The position numbers and the translations under genes are program-made. A stretch of DNA of 64,000 bases from a virus (taxonomy: Duplodnaviria; Heunggongvirae; Uroviricota; Caudoviricetes). The notes beneath the pieces are model-generated. The model did not search any database, had not been told where the DNA came from, and worked only from the letters and a program-made list of their open reading frames with translations. Within the stretch, counting starts at the first letter, position 1; every line of letters starts with the position of its first letter. Positions 8,349 to 46,424 of the stretch are shown piece after piece. The stretch lies in IMG/VR virus record IMGVR_UViG_2609460125_000009; one strand, given 5' to 3'.

Positions 8349-8552
8349 TTAAATAGAATTTTGAAGTTTTCCGATTAATGCGCTTAAACGTAAGTATTCA
8401 CGTTTGCGCTTGCAATCTCGCTTGCTGTTAAGCAAATCAGAAAACGTAAAATTTAATTGGTCGCGTTGCGCGATTAAATCATCGATTAATTCCAGTTTAT
8501 AAGCGCGATACTTTGCGCGATATTCCGCGCGGATCTTGTCATAGCTGACCAT
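8349..8552 (-). CDS. hypothetical basic protein (67 aa)
   Basis: Start moved to the internal ATG with an AAAGGAG RBS; the longer track ORF would run through the 8568 hairpin. Confidence 0.4.
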   Translation of the reverse strand: MVSYDKIRAEYRAKYRAYKLELIDDLIAQRDQLNFTFSDLLNSKRDCKRKREYLRLSALIGKLQNSI

Positions 8553-8567
8553 TTTCAAAGCTCCTTT

Positions 8568-8589
8568 AAAGCGCCCATAGTGGGCGCTT
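8568..8589 (-). terminator. hairpin identical to the 8072 copy
   Basis: AAAGCGCCCATAGTGGGCGCTT between the 8601 gene stop and the next RBS. Confidence 0.45.
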
Positions 8590-8600
8590 GATTCCATTAA

Positions 8601-9251
8601 TTACGCTTTGAAAGCATCAGCTAAATAATTGTAGAAATCATTTTTAATGAAGCGATATTGCTGAGTACCAGCTTTCGCACTCCCAGCTCCTTTGACTTTT
8701 TCAACAAGTCCAAGACGTTCGCAAAGATTGATCAACTGGTTGGCTTGAGTATAGCCAGCGTCCAATTTAATTTCACACGCTTTTTTAGCTTCATTCATTA
8801 AATCGAAAACAGCGCCATTGGTGAACGTGTCGATCTCGTCGTTAATCATATCGATTAAAGCGAATACACGAGATCCTGACATATCAGCGATGGAATAAAC
8901 GCATTTACCAGATTTAATTGATTTAACCAGATAAACCAGTTTTTCCAGAGAATAACTATTAGTCATTGCATCACGGAAAAATACTTCTGGCGCTTGTTTG
9001 CTTGCTTTAATCGCATAGTAGAAAACAGAGCATAATTTTTCGTCTTCTACTGCGTTTACGACGTTGTTGATGAAGTAAGCAAGTTTAGTGGTCGCAGCTT
9101 GCATATTTGCTTTGTCTGCTTTAGTGTGCGTACCATTTTTATAATGTTCGTTATATGTTTGAGTTGCCAGATCTGCTTTTTCGCGCAGCTCGTCGGATAC
9201 AATAGATGCAGCTTCAATGATGGACTTTTTAGAAATGATAATGTTAGCCAT
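8601..9251 (-). CDS. hypothetical protein (216 aa), no recognisable motif
   Basis: First gene of an AT-rich operon; long AT-rich promoter region upstream (9252-9500). Confidence 0.5.
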   Translation of the reverse strand: MANIIISKKSIIEAASIVSDELREKADLATQTYNEHYKNGTHTKADKANMQAATTKLAYFINNVVNAVEDEKLCSVFYYAIKASKQAPEVFFRDAMTNSYSLEKLVYLVKSIKSGKCVYSIADMSGSRVFALIDMINDEIDTFTNGAVFDLMNEAKKACEIKLDAGYTQANQLINLCERLGLVEKVKGAGSAKAGTQQYRFIKNDFYNYLADAFKA

Positions 9252-9502
9252 GATAATTTTTCCTTATGTAAATTTAAAATTTATTGTCGTTAGCGTCTTC
9301 GCTTTCGACGAGTTCAATTATCGATACGCGAAAAAAGATTGCAAGTGTTTTTTTTAAATTTTTTGCAGGGATGAAAGTCCTAGAAATAAAAGCGAGATCG
9401 TCGAAGGTGTTCCCTAAATAAATAATCAATTCGGGCTTTTAACCTTATATATATTTAGGTTATTTGATTTGTAGATATAAAGAAGTGATGTGAAAAATAA
9501 TA

Positions 9503-41500: not shown

Positions 41501-42661
41501 TGGAACGGTTTGCGACCAATTACAATTAATAATACCAGCGGTGCTGTATCAATTGGTAATGGACTAAATGTGACTGGTGGCGTAAATGGTAGTTTGAACG
41601 GTAATGCTTCAACAGCTACGAAGTTGCAAACAGCGAGAAACATCAATGGTGTTAAGTTTGATGGCTCAGGCGATATCAACATTAATACATTGGTATCTCG
41701 TGGCCGAGTTACGGCGTTAAGCGGCTCTACTCAAGGCACTGCTGGCATTCAAATGTACGAGGCGTACAACAATAGCTACCCGACCACGTATGGCAACGTA
41801 TTGCACATGAAAGGTGCGAGTGCTGCTGGTGAGGGCGAGTTGCTTATTGGCTGGAGTGGTACGAGCGGTGCACATGCGCCAGTTTTCATTCGCTCACGAA
41901 GAGATACCACAGATGCGGCATGGTCAGCGTGGGCGCAGGTATATACTGCTAAGGATTCAATCCCTGGTGTGAATACAACCGGTAATCAGAATACTACTGG
42001 TAATGCCGCAACAGCCACAAAATTGCAGACAGCAAGGAAAATTGCTGGTGTGGCGTTTGATGGCTCTGCCGATATTACTTTGACTGCGGCTAACCTTAAT
42101 GCTTATACGAAAACAGAGGTAACAAACCTTCTAAGTTCCTATGCAAGCAGATCATCACTGACAGGCTATAGTGGCAACCTGGATATTATTGCTGAAACAC
42201 TGGTTGTCAAATCAGGCGGTAGTGGAGGGTTTGCTATATGGGATATTGGCACAACTACTAGCGGTGCCAATATGTACATTGATCCAAACCCTGGTATCAA
42301 TACAGTTTGGCGTTCAACATCTTCAAGGCGCTATAAAAAGGATATTGAAACATTACAAGATCGATATGCTGATGAACTTTTGTCATTAAGACCTGTTTGG
42401 TATCGTTCAATTTGTCGAGGTGACCGAAAGGATTGGGGGTATTACGGCCTTATTGCTGAAGAGGTTGGTGAGATTGCCCCGCAATATGTCCATTGGCGTG
42501 AACCAACAAATAATGATTCTCCAGAAGATATTTCCTCAAATGGTATGGTCGCTGAAGGGGTGATGTATGAGCGTTTGGTTGTACCACTCATTCATCATAT
42601 TCAGCAATTGACCAAAAGGGTTGAGGAGCTTGAAACGAAGTTAAATTCACCTAAAGAATAA
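38504..42661 (+). CDS. side tail fibre with C-terminal intramolecular chaperone (peptidase S74-like) domain
   Basis: Ala/Ser-rich low-complexity region, five GNAATATKLQTAR-containing repeats, C-terminal chaperone-like block (…YGLIAEEV…). Confidence 0.8.
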   Translation: MWYREGTITFTQGSNTLVGAGTAWNVTANGVLPGMIVIGPDNKLYEIKRVTSDTNIVLSEPYTGETQSEVPCRIITTYEGDLTQFSARFTALMSRMSADSKSMRSWLTALDEVTIEREDGTEVTVKPLMQIVNEHNENVEWYKNNTDAIDAAGDKAREAAASAAAAAESANIAGEKASQASQSASAAESSKSAAATSAGAAKTSETNAAASQKSAATSASTATTKASEAATSARDAAASKEAAKSSETSAASSASNAASSATAAGNSAKAAKTSETNARSSETAAGQSASAAAGSKTAAASSASAASTSAGQASASATAAGKSAESAASSASTATTKAGEATEQASAAARSASAAKTSETNAKASETRAESSKTAAASSASSAASSASSASASKDEATRQASAAKGSATTASTKATEAAGSATAASQSKTAAESAATRAEAAADRAEEIAGAVAMEDASLTTKGVVKLSSAVDSTSESLAATPKAVKVVNDNANSRVPSNRKINGKALTADITLTPKDIGTLNSITMSFSGGAGWFKLATVTMPQASSIVYIALIGGAGYNVGSPHQAGISELVLRAGNGNPKGITGALWKRTAVGLTNFAWINTSGDTYDIYVEIGNYATRVNIHWDCTANATVSIYTSPTYSASKPSSVTDGVVYTMYSTHQKPTPLDIGALPTTGGTVSGPLSVTGGITGTLNGNASTATKLQTARSIGGVGFDGSANINLPGVNTTGNQNTTGNAATATKLQTARTIGGVSFDGTANINLPGVNTTGNQNTTGNAATATKLQTARTINGVSFDGSANISLSPANIGCPASPTGWLTTGSNGGAITTAQLVTLLQNNGAFNTKSWIARCAWAYANSATIPNSETGCGVIPLAGAVIEVFNNGSSSNNYTIRITTATTTSVSGALTNAEFIYVFNGTDYSPGWRRVYNTKNKPTASDVGALPLTGGTLSGGLTSSGEIISKYANGFRIAYGSFGFFIRNDGSNTYFMLTASGDTLGSWNGLRPITINNTSGAVSIGNGLNVTGGVNGSLNGNASTATKLQTARNINGVKFDGSGDININTLVSRGRVTALSGSTQGTAGIQMYEAYNNSYPTTYGNVLHMKGASAAGEGELLIGWSGTSGAHAPVFIRSRRDTTDAAWSAWAQVYTAKDSIPGVNTTGNQNTTGNAATATKLQTARKIAGVAFDGSADITLTAANLNAYTKTEVTNLLSSYASRSSLTGYSGNLDIIAETLVVKSGGSGGFAIWDIGTTTSGANMYIDPNPGINTVWRSTSSRRYKKDIETLQDRYADELLSLRPVWYRSICRGDRKDWGYYGLIAEEVGEIAPQYVHWREPTNNDSPEDISSNGMVAEGVMYERLVVPLIHHIQQLTKRVEELETKLNSPKE

Positions 42662-42721
42662 ACAACTTCAATCGGGGCTGGAACTAAACCAGCCCCTGCT
42701 TAAAAGTATAAGGATATATTT

Positions 42722-42976
42722 ATGAGCTATGGTGCACAGGTATGGTCGCCATCAAGACAGGAGATGGTCGATGCGTTGGCCCCTGTTTATTACCTCGATT
42801 ATTTTACTCCCTCTGGTTCTGGAAGTAGAACATATGAGGTTGAGGCGGGATTGGGAATCGACTATTACATAATGGACGTAACCAATGGGAAATACACAAG
42901 TCTTACGGTTTCTGGAAATACCATTTCATGGTCTGGAGCTAGTGGCAATTTAAACATATTGGTTTTTCAAAAATAA
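42722..42976 (+). CDS. hypothetical protein downstream of the tail fibre
   Basis: 84-aa ORF. Confidence 0.4.
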   Translation: MSYGAQVWSPSRQEMVDALAPVYYLDYFTPSGSGSRTYEVEAGLGIDYYIMDVTNGKYTSLTVSGNTISWSGASGNLNILVFQK

Positions 42977-43584
42977 TGTACGGAAGCAAGATATATCGAT
43001 CTGACGGGAAGGTCTGGATGTCTCCTTCTTTGTCTCCTATCGTCTTTCAGAGAAAGCAGGTTGTTTCTTTGTCTGGCGGGACAGAGTTTAACACCCAAAT
43101 ATCTCCAGATCGTTCACCGATGATTTTTGTTGCCTATTCGAAAGCTGTTTCATTAATAGCCAACAGAATAGTGCGTAACAACCAGGTGATTTACAGTTTC
43201 GGAGGTCAGGGTAGCGACTCTAGTGCCACGATATACGTATTTTCGAAAGGTATAGCCAAAAAAGAAACTTGGGGCATGAGTTTTTTCAATGCACAAGGGG
43301 AGGAAATCTATAATACGGCAAATATCCCACTTTCATTTACCTTTCTTAATAATACGGAGTGGAACAGCTCTGGAGGGCATGTTTTTGATTACCCACCAGC
43401 GATAATCCCAACATATGCGAATGTGTTCGCTGTTCCAGTACCGGGCGGAGCCATGACAATGGTTTATGGATATGCGGCATATGGAAATACTGTTAGCTCG
43501 ATATTCGTAAACCAACTTAATGGCGGCCATAGTTTTAGCGTAAATGGCAGAGTACCGGTAATAAATAGAAATCTGTATAACTGA
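42976..43584 (+). CDS. hypothetical protein
   Basis: 202-aa ORF overlapping the upstream stop. Confidence 0.45.
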   Translation: MYGSKIYRSDGKVWMSPSLSPIVFQRKQVVSLSGGTEFNTQISPDRSPMIFVAYSKAVSLIANRIVRNNQVIYSFGGQGSDSSATIYVFSKGIAKKETWGMSFFNAQGEEIYNTANIPLSFTFLNNTEWNSSGGHVFDYPPAIIPTYANVFAVPVPGGAMTMVYGYAAYGNTVSSIFVNQLNGGHSFSVNGRVPVINRNLYN

Positions 43585-43591
43585 TGAGTAA

Positions 43592-43825
43592 ATGATGAAA
43601 AGATTATTTCTAACAATAGCTGTTGTTCTCTCTCTTACTGGCTGCCAGAAATTGCCGACACCTATATGTTACGGTGAGGCTATCATTGGTGGACAGGAGA
43701 CAGTCATACCCATATATGCTGTTAAAAAAGTGAACGACTATACCTTATACAAAGCGGGTAGCATCTATAACTGGCGATGGGTAGGAGTAGGTGCTTTCTC
43801 ATCAGTCCGTTGCAATGTTGAATGA
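43592..43825 (+). CDS. small lipoprotein, candidate superinfection-exclusion protein
   Basis: Signal peptide with lipobox LTGC; 77 aa; located after the tail fibre genes. Confidence 0.55.
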   Translation: MMKRLFLTIAVVLSLTGCQKLPTPICYGEAIIGGQETVIPIYAVKKVNDYTLYKAGSIYNWRWVGVGAFSSVRCNVE

Positions 43826-43906
43826 TAAGTAAGTACACACCTACAACAAGAAGGTGAAATGTGATATAAATCCGCCATCCCGATTTGACTTTTCATGGAG
43901 GAAAAC

Positions 43907-44230
43907 ATGTCGAACGAGATGGCGGGCGTTACAACAGAGCAAGTTGAGCGTATTGCCGCGATCGTTGCTCGGGAGGTTGTTGGCAAATTAGGTAAAGAGC
44001 TACGTGAAGAAATTGGCCAGGAGGTCAATGATCAGCTGAAAACCTACTTTGGTGATATGACCCCGGCGCAACATAGTATTCAACACTCCAACCTGGACAA
44101 ACTCCTTAACCGGTTAGATTCCATCTCCAGTGGGTTCTTTGGCGGCATTGTTTCTAAAATAACGTCGTTCATTATTACTGCACTGCTTTTGGGGTTAGCC
44201 GCGTATGGCGTAAAAAATGGACTGCAATAA
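43907..44230 (+). CDS. putative holin-like membrane protein
   Basis: C-terminal transmembrane segment; first gene of the lysis block; start at the ATG with GGAGGA RBS. Confidence 0.4.
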   Translation: MSNEMAGVTTEQVERIAAIVAREVVGKLGKELREEIGQEVNDQLKTYFGDMTPAQHSIQHSNLDKLLNRLDSISSGFFGGIVSKITSFIITALLLGLAAYGVKNGLQ

Positions 44231-44937: not shown

Positions 44938-45189
44938 ATGCTAGGCAGCCTGATGACAAAGCTAAAAGTTGCTTTGATTACGCTGGCTGCCGTTCTTTTC
45001 GTTCTTGTCGGCGCTTACACGATGGGCGGAAATGCGGCGCGACGAGCAATGGAAGAGAAGGCAAAACAGGAAGACAGAAAACGACTTCAAAACACAGTGA
45101 AAGTGGTGAATGAGACGAGCAGTAAAATACGTCAGAAAGATGCTTCTGCCGTTCATCGTGAGTTGTATGATAAGTGGGTGCGTCATTAA
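44938..45189 (+). CDS. i-spanin (Rz-like)
   Basis: N-terminal transmembrane segment followed by a charged coiled-coil. Confidence 0.6.
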   Translation: MLGSLMTKLKVALITLAAVLFVLVGAYTMGGNAARRAMEEKAKQEDRKRLQNTVKVVNETSSKIRQKDASAVHRELYDKWVRH

Positions 45190-45325
45190 ACCACAAACAG
45201 CCAGCGTGTTGTTCTGCGATGGGGCTGAGCCTATCTATATCAGCAATAATGATGTAATGACTGAAGAAACCGAACGCCAAATCCTTTTTCACAATACGAT
45301 GGGAGAGAGGGTTTGTGGTTGGTGA
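45140..45325 (+). CDS. o-spanin (Rz1-like lipoprotein), overlapping the i-spanin gene in another frame
   Basis: Signal peptide with lipobox ISGC; begins inside the i-spanin gene and extends beyond it. Confidence 0.55.
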   Translation: MLLPFIVSCMISGCVIKPQTASVLFCDGAEPIYISNNDVMTEETERQILFHNTMGERVCGW

Positions 45326-45357: not shown

Positions 45358-45879
45358 TTATTCTTCGAACAATTTTTCGATAGATTTTGTAGGATAGAAC
45401 AAAGAACGCTCGTTGTTACCAACCAGCTGGATAAAGCCTAAACTTTTATAAAACGCCTTGGCTTTGTCATTTAACGCCTCAACGAAAAGTCCATGAATGC
45501 CTACAGCAAGAGATGCATTGTACACAACGCGCATTGCATGTGTTACAAGCATTGAGCCAAATCCTTGACCTTGAAGGGACTTGTCCAAAGCCAGCCTACC
45601 CAAAGTAACACTTGGAACATTCCGATAAGGAACCTTCTTTTGTTTGCTTCTTGAAGGTAAGGACTCCTTTTCAAAACAACTACCTGACAAAGTGTAATAT
45701 CCTAACACTTTTGGCCTTTCTTCTTGAGTGCAAAGCACATAAGCACGAAGAATTTTTCCCTCATGCTGCCTTTTTAAGTGGTTGGCTAAAAAGGCGTTTA
45801 GTGACTCTTCGCCGCAATCAAAACCGTTTAGATCATAATCTTTCTCTCCAGAGAAAATCTCTATCGTTGTATTGCTCAC
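45358..45879 (-). CDS. GNAT-family acetyltransferase toxin (TacT/KacT/AtaT-like)
   Basis: GNAT motif QGQGFGSMLV; directly downstream of an RHH antitoxin-like gene. Confidence 0.7.
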   Translation of the reverse strand: MSNTTIEIFSGEKDYDLNGFDCGEESLNAFLANHLKRQHEGKILRAYVLCTQEERPKVLGYYTLSGSCFEKESLPSRSKQKKVPYRNVPSVTLGRLALDKSLQGQGFGSMLVTHAMRVVYNASLAVGIHGLFVEALNDKAKAFYKSLGFIQLVGNNERSLFYPTKSIEKLFEE

Positions 45880-45886
45880 GAGTAAA

Positions 45887-46156
45887 CTACTCCATGCTTT
45901 TCAGACGATCAGCAGCTCGTTTCAGCTTGTCGTTCGGTGCCGGAGGATTGCTTATAGCGTCCATAACCAGATTCCAGGATTCTTCATTCAGAACTAGTCT
46001 ACGGTGTTGCTCTATAACTTTCACGGCACGTTCAGATGCACTGCTAACCATAAACTGAGTAATGCTCTGGTTAGACATTGCGGCAGCTTCCTCGATGATG
46101 CTTTTATCGTCATCGGTTAATCTCAAATCGATGCGCTGCTTTTTTAGTGCTGACAT
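45887..46156 (-). CDS. RHH antitoxin (DUF1778-like)
   Basis: Small ORF with AGGAGG RBS; 8-bp gap to the toxin gene. Confidence 0.6.
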   Translation of the reverse strand: MSALKKQRIDLRLTDDDKSIIEEAAAMSNQSITQFMVSSASERAVKVIEQHRRLVLNEESWNLVMDAISNPPAPNDKLKRAADRLKSME

Positions 46157-46424
46157 GTATTCCTCCTGATGGCCGTGATGTAGGAAGGCCATCAATCTCC
46201 TCTGTTCAAACTGAGTTTTCGACTCAAAAATTACTTTAAAAGGCTATAGCCCATTACGTGTGCATTATCAAATTGTGTACGGCATAACACCGTACTTGTA
46301 ATATAGAGGTCATTGTTACTTTTTTCAACAGACAAATACAAGCTATGATTGCCAATTGTTAATCACAACCTACCATTTAACCTTTACACCGCAGCCGTAG
46401 GCATTTAGGCTATATCACATATAA

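Follow-up and report, generated by a model that had tools for sequence, protein, structure and literature searches.

Phages of several kinds encode small lipoproteins of the Cor family, by which they switch off their own outer-membrane receptor and so bar further phages, the receptor being FhuA in the tested cases. Members of the family are documented exclusion proteins (PMC9586334; 2026 bioRxiv preprint 10.64898/2026.03.26.714494; PMC13164509), and those of HK022, N15, phi80 and mEp167 inactivate FhuA by lysogenic conversion. A related block is exerted on FhuA by Llp of phage T5, a protein with termini tied by a Cys11-Cys58 disulfide, which acts allosterically from the periplasmic face and gives no steric cover at the surface; in Llp-bound FhuA the extracellular loops 7 and 8 turn inward, so that pb5 is not bound (PMC9586334). 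That Cor proteins act like Llp has been argued in all three of the studies cited above, and an AF3 model of the KanT1 Cor:FhuA complex has an ipTM of 0.84 (PMC13164509). An ‘extended cor cassette’ has been described for T1, HK022, N15, ES18 and phi80, all FhuA-dependent (PMC13164509, citing Wietzorrek et al. 2006), and for ten BASEL phages, all of them FhuA users (PMC13164509). For Maffei et al. the same locus is the bona fide site of the receptor-binding proteins, with the cognate exclusion proteins encoded alongside (PMC8594841). For cassette proteins of the type represented here by a 202-aa product, both a role as component of the receptor-binding locus and a role as exclusion accessory have been proposed in the literature.

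The window, i.e. the whole stretch of 64,000 nucleotides analysed, derives from an SSU5-like E. coli phage-plasmid, the host element being about 110 kb. Its small lipoprotein gene stands in the order J-like tail tip fibre, side fibre, 84-aa protein, 202-aa protein, cor, holin, endolysin, i-/o-spanin, GNAT/TacA toxin-antitoxin and ParA (Table 1). Taken as a whole, the data are best explained if this gene encodes a Cor-family superinfection-exclusion lipoprotein that would lock an outer-membrane receptor, most likely the TonB-dependent transporter FhuA, a reading to which we assign a probability of roughly 85%.

Table 1. Coordinates of cor and its neighbours in the window.
Feature	Position	Strand	Basis or remark
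J-like central tail tip fibre, 1576 aa	33681..38411	+	C-terminal PF09327 tail-tip domain (Pfam)
Side tail fibre, 1385 aa	38504..42661	+	Gp34_trimer, C-terminal Peptidase_S74 chaperone domain (Pfam)
84-aa cassette partner, N15 gp22-like	42722..42976	+	PHROG 557 ‘outer membrane protein’, E 1.3e-24
202-aa cassette partner, N15 gp23-like	42976..43584	+	PHROG 425 ‘membrane associated protein’, E 4.5e-49
cor, phage exclusion lipoprotein Cor	43595..43825	+	predicted 76-aa precursor, 60-aa mature protein
Holin-like protein, lysis cassette gene 1	43895..44230	+	PHROG 5093; holin in Cyrano and SSU5 annotation
i-spanin / o-spanin pair	44938..45189 / 45110..45325	+	PHROGs 1026 / 1275
GNAT-acetyltransferase toxin	45358..45879	-	Pfam Acetyltransf_1/7
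TacA-type antitoxin	45887..46195	-	Pfam TacA1

The preliminary description had placed a 77-aa reading frame at 43592-43825. The frame is intact (translation MMKRLFLTIAVVLSLTGCQKLPTPICYGEAIIGGQETVIPIYAVKKVNDYTLYKAGSIYNWRWVGVGAFSSVRCNVE), but two neighbouring in-frame ATGs occupy 43592..43597, the first giving the 77-aa form, and the second, at 43595, is most likely the true start, giving a 76-aa precursor. This choice is favoured because the upstream ATG is replaced by ACG in three related loci, all Cor homologues have an MK(R/K) N-terminus, RefSeq places the start at the downstream ATG, and this ATG is preceded at 6 nt by a GAG. The signal peptide with lipobox LTGC noted earlier was confirmed. 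It comprises residues 1-16 (76-aa numbering), with Lys-Arg in the n-region and a hydrophobic core of 11 residues, and matches the lipobox regular expression in the layout MKRLFLTIAVVLS-LTGC-Q; the frame opens with MMKRLFLTIAVVLSLTGC, followed by QK. Cys17 is the predicted lipidated residue, and the mature protein of 60 aa would carry cysteines at positions 1, 9 and 57. A Pfam search of the reading frame returned a sub-threshold lipoprotein attachment site alone (LPAM_1, 17.3 bits against a cutoff of 20) and no Cor model. In E. coli, Gln at position +2 directs a lipoprotein to the outer membrane. As the +2 residue of Cor is Gln rather than Asp, sorting to this membrane is expected.

The assignment to the Cor family is, by sequence, unambiguous. 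The product aligns along its whole length with PHROG 1119 (‘Cor superinfection exclusion protein’; E-value 3.8e-30), and scores 80.5 bits with NF047972, an NCBIfam equivalog named ‘phage exclusion lipoprotein Cor’ (curated cutoff 31; E 6.7e-23), residues 2-75 aligning with positions 1-77 of the 78 in the profile. Matches to Cor were obtained by tblastn in 169 phage records, with identities of 59% to SSU5_025 (‘Cor-like’), 58% to Cor of Stx2-converting phage 86 (Stx2-86), 47% to HK022 Cor and 42% to N15 Cor. Given the PHROG E-value, the NCBIfam score and the number of tblastn records, the reading frame is far beyond chance. The columns that do not vary when 19 or 54 homologues are aligned hold the lipobox Cys (invariant across all 54), two further Cys, one Gly and one Phe, and every one of these residues is present in the window protein (C26, C74, G56 and F69 in 77-aa numbering), as are the Cor core motifs GG, IY.V.K, Y.AG, NWRWV and F.S..C. 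A search of a 5.8-billion-protein index with the single sequence gave only four matches, as so short a query has few exact words in common with its relatives, while the alignment as query gave 88. The scan of viral contigs returned near-identical loci exclusively, and the exhaustive search of representatives gave 18 matches. A 1087-aa protein from outside the window, built of about 19 identical tandem repeats, reached an E-value of 3.4e-24 in the representative search by the summing of many weak repeat matches (19 matched stretches) and is no Cor relative. None of the three cassette proteins (84-aa, 202-aa and Cor) was matched by PADLOC.

An AlphaFold2 model of Cor, built from 54 sequences, is a small beta-barrel of five strands with a mean pLDDT of 82.6 over the mature domain and above 90 for blocks 21-70. 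It has the features of an Llp-type fold, namely a small barrel with termini tied by a disulfide, the Cys9/Cys57 pair of Cor resembling Cys11-Cys58 of Llp. Foldseek against the PDB gave no significant match (Llp at rank 30), and with viral models as targets the list was headed by Cor, followed by lipoproteins of T5-like phages; among the solved structures, T5 Llp in its FhuA complex is the one that the predicted fold matches best. Structural alignments of Cor and Llp show about 13-15% identity, and a Cor profile matches the Llp sequence with an E-value of 1.7e-4 over a stretch (1-47) that is largely signal peptide and first strand. Llp (FhuA:Llp complex, PDB 8A60) lies outside the Cor sequence family, unlike the window protein. 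The systems also differ in that T5 is a virulent phage with early Llp expression and the window a phage-plasmid, and in that llp adjoins the pb5 gene and lacks the PHROG 557/425 pair that accompanies cor in the window.

Homology, synteny and predicted fold all support the reading as an exclusion lipoprotein, and the Cor/Llp-type candidate proposed in the preliminary description is supported by the PHROG 1119 and NF047972 matches, the conserved cassette and the Llp-like model. The statement there that no other function could be assigned falls away, since homology does assign a function, the very one proposed. As to the position, which the description likened to known arrangements, the gene belongs to a cor cassette that is conserved and comes after the tail fibre genes. 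It does not follow the fibre genes immediately, the 84-aa and 202-aa reading frames separating it from the side fibre.

The trio of PHROG 557, PHROG 425 and cor is also found in SSU5, N15, HK022 and SECphi4, the positions of the pair being occupied in HK022 by ORFs of 100 and 212 aa. PHROG 557 unites N15 gp22, a 100-aa protein of SECphi4 and the 84-aa partner, and PHROG 425 unites N15 gp23, a 223-aa SECphi4 protein and the 202-aa partner. The 84-aa partner is 69% identical to SSU5_023 and the 202-aa partner 75% identical to the SSU5 protein encoded directly 5' of SSU5 cor. The next-best relatives of the 202-aa partner are from coliphages of about 51 kb, with 29-32% identity, including the Drexlerviridae member FritzSarasin (Bas04; PMC8594841). 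Stx-converting phages and T1-like coliphages encode homologues with 24-32% identity to the partners, and BLAST of the partners against the N15 locus gave no match. PHROG 557/425 pairs are present in many Stx-converting phages too. The ‘membrane’ labels of both PHROGs are without signal-peptide or transmembrane support in the window proteins, as a hydrophobic segment was sought in the 84-aa partner, and a signal peptide or transmembrane segment in the 202-aa partner, and none was found. A sequence search of the 202-aa partner against the PDB gave no match, and its AF2 model, based on 6 sequences in the alignment, is unusable (pLDDT 31).

Of the fibres upstream, the J-like protein matches NCBIfam lambda_TipJ with an E-value of 3e-160, yet falls below the exception cutoff of that model. 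Its last 239 aa hold no clue to the receptor, since they form a tail-tip domain so broadly conserved that it recurs in 1,820 phage records from many hosts. The side fibre has a long N-terminal region rich in Ala and Ser with repeated ‘GNQNTTGNAATATKLQTAR’ motifs, a T4 gp34-type trimerisation domain at residues 907-1008 and a Peptidase_S74 intramolecular chaperone at 1273-1329. Further downstream, the GNAT/TacA pair matches a pair in Cyrano annotated as KacT toxin and antitoxin.

The 5.9 kb from fibre to holin are 99.9% identical to plasmid NZ_CP027358, and 1.3 kb around cor are 99.9% identical in the E. coli plasmid pSTEC409_1, which encodes an identical Cor labelled ‘cor: phage exclusion lipoprotein Cor’ in RefSeq (WP_033803601.1). 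In complete E. coli genomes all region matches (207 of 207) are on plasmids, and the cassette is present, always on plasmids, in 66 of the 205 genomes matching the region, or about one third. Eighteen loci were compared as close relatives, 12 of which aligned end to end. These 12 hold six cor alleles, each with the terminal stop alone, and differ by 10 synonymous and 5 nonsynonymous codon changes, the latter located in the signal peptide, a loop and the C-terminal tail.

A comparison with further elements reveals a mosaic structure. In Cyrano, the pLF82 phage-plasmid, the J protein is 97.7% identical to that of the window, whereas the side fibre is 91% identical over aa 1-1219 only, and the 84-aa, 202-aa and cor genes are absent. 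The DNA homology ends after about 41685-42143 and returns at 43824, one base short of the end of the cor stop codon, to reach 99% across the lysis genes, so that the distal ~170 aa of the side fibre and the three cassette genes form one variable block (42143..43824), with the holin-like gene as its conserved right flank. In PhiR41_1, an element for which no description was found in the literature, the slot (L006, 9330..9902, compared with L005, 9492..10001, in Cyrano) holds two unrelated small ORFs (PHROGs 1361 and 1443). The edges at which homology is lost and regained, the absence from Cyrano, the substitution in PhiR41_1 and the carriage by 66 of 205 genomes show the fibre tip and cor cassette to behave like a single exchangeable accessory host-range block.

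Compared with the described systems, the window protein belongs to the same curated family as the lambdoid and N15-type Cor proteins and shares with them length, lipobox and the invariant Cys pair, but is only 42-47% identical to them. In N15 and HK022, as in the window, cor is the last gene of the trio past the tail tip genes; the window differs by the 1385-aa side fibre inserted between J and the trio, and by its carriage on an SSU5-like phage-plasmid of about 110 kb instead of a lambdoid or linear-plasmid prophage. The closest relatives among phage records are those of SSU5 and Stx2-86. SSU5 has the gene order of the window (fibre, 84-aa-like, 202-aa-like, cor, holin), but upstream there is, in it as in Stx2-86, a tail-fibre adhesin of PHROG 1121, whereas the window fibre ends in Peptidase_S74 with no separate adhesin. 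In Stx2-86, a short-tailed phage (L004, 4428..5213 and 8441..9345), cor follows directly on the PHROG 1121 adhesin, the equivalent of SSU5 gp22, and the PHROG 557/425 pair lies 3 kb further on, beside lom; the three cassette genes are hence not always contiguous. The extended cassette of T1, the Drexlerviridae and the Dhillonviruses has these three families too, arranged alike with respect to the J-like gene (PMC13164509; PMC8594841), although cor is on the opposite strand in SECphi4 (Dhillonvirus), their Cor proteins are only about 26-34% identical to that of the window, and these phages are small virulent siphoviruses as opposed to a phage-plasmid.

The sole serious alternative concerns the target, not the function. 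The protein could be a Cor-family exclusion lipoprotein directed at BtuB, another TonB-dependent transporter or a porin, whichever is the terminal receptor of SSU5-like phage-plasmids, a version we regard as improbable, though worth keeping in view. It gains from the fact that the proteins of the window, SSU5 and Stx2-86 make up a subgroup of their own (57-62% mutual identity, 44-47% to HK022/N15), that the cassette partners have diverged far from those of N15, and that the reported receptor of SSU5 is the LPS core, with no protein receptor known (PMC4138488, PMC12312913). Moreover, BtuB-using phages are also accompanied by Cor/Llp-like proteins (PMC13164509), and Van den Berg et al. argue that it should apply to further TonB-dependent transporters as a mechanism (PMC9586334). 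The equivalog-type match to NF047972 lies well over its cutoff, however, and among phages with a determined receptor the full three-gene cassette has so far been seen in FhuA-dependent ones only (PMC13164509). The divergence from HK022 and N15 is also no greater than that among known FhuA-linked Cor proteins, as the mature part of the window protein is 46-47% identical to theirs, comparable to the 40-43% between HK022/N15 and Dhillonvirus Cor. A bolder form of the same idea would have the SSU5, Stx-phage and window Cor proteins retargeted away from FhuA, with the 84-aa and 202-aa products as matching detachable receptor-binding proteins, the block from fibre tip to cor constituting a self-contained, swappable module for choosing and locking a receptor. 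This would account for the existence of a Cyrano J protein that is 97.7% identical without the block, and is to be considered speculative and rather unlikely. In the literature reached, no report of an exclusion phenotype or of receptor identity for SSU5-like phage-plasmids was found.

Two readings that deny the protein an exclusion role fare far worse. A lysis lipoprotein, either o-spanin-like or a lysis accessory, might be suspected from the 70 nt that separate cor from the holin-like gene and from the resemblance of a small outer-membrane-type lipoprotein to o-spanins, but a complete i-/o-spanin pair is already present, the cor reading frame has no spanin family match, Cyrano carries the same lysis cassette (99% identity) without cor, and what follows cor in N15 and HK022 is a tail-fibre gene instead of lysis genes; such a role is exceedingly improbable, and an identity as Rz1-like o-spanin is excluded by the Rz/Rz1-like pair downstream and the cor-less Cyrano cassette. 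The o-spanin frame (71 aa) overlaps the i-spanin gene 1.3 kb 3' of cor and has a lipobox of its own, ISGC. This second lipobox frame is a lysis protein and no exclusion factor. Scarcely more credible is a role as component of the virion or tail tip, or as factor in the assembly of the fibre module. The tight spacing of cor with the fibre and cassette genes (10-nt gap, no promoter-like site) and its travelling with the fibre tip in one mosaic block would fit such a role. A Sec-exported, lipidated 60-aa protein would, however, be barred from tail assembly in the cytoplasm, which makes a virion component implausible; the relatives are documented as exclusion proteins in the studies cited at the outset (PMC9586334; 10.64898/2026.03.26.714494; PMC13164509), and Cyrano makes virions without cor (PMC9928086).

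With regard to expression, the ATG at 43595 lies 10 nt past the stop of the upstream reading frame (7 nt for that at 43592), whereas the gap before cor is about 110 nt in N15 and HK022, so that nothing points to a ‘moron’ promoter of its own for cor here. A promoter and terminator scan around cor found no site directly upstream, with counts lower than expected from shuffled sequence. Expression with the late tail genes only is as plausible as lysogenic conversion.

The Cor-family reading, with FhuA as the probable target, has as its observed basis the family membership, the lipoprotein features, the conserved cysteines, the cassette synteny and the Llp-like predicted fold. The precursor would be exported by Sec, lipidated at Cys17 and cleaved by signal peptidase II, to give a mature protein of 60 aa in which position +2 is Gln and a disulfide joins Cys9 and Cys57. 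[quoted passage not shown] The term ‘receptor-masking’ used in the preliminary description is in this respect loosely right, but the block by Llp is allosteric from the periplasmic face and involves no steric cover (PMC9586334), and Cor is most likely a periplasmic-face outer-membrane lipoprotein that would inactivate its receptor in the same allosteric manner. The exclusion would cover the same phage as well as unrelated phages with a common receptor, and may also keep progeny off the debris of lysed cells.

The cor gene is a known kind of feature, already labelled cor in public records; the Cor family, the place of its genes and the way it probably works are all documented, and the RefSeq name is already Cor, so the finding matters little as a discovery. 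For E. coli strains that harbour this SSU5-like phage-plasmid, resistance is predicted to phages sharing its receptor (should this be FhuA: T1, T5, phi80 and N15-like phages), and their uptake of ferrichrome or albomycin may fall too. The predicted resistance bears on the choice of therapeutic phages and on competition between prophages.
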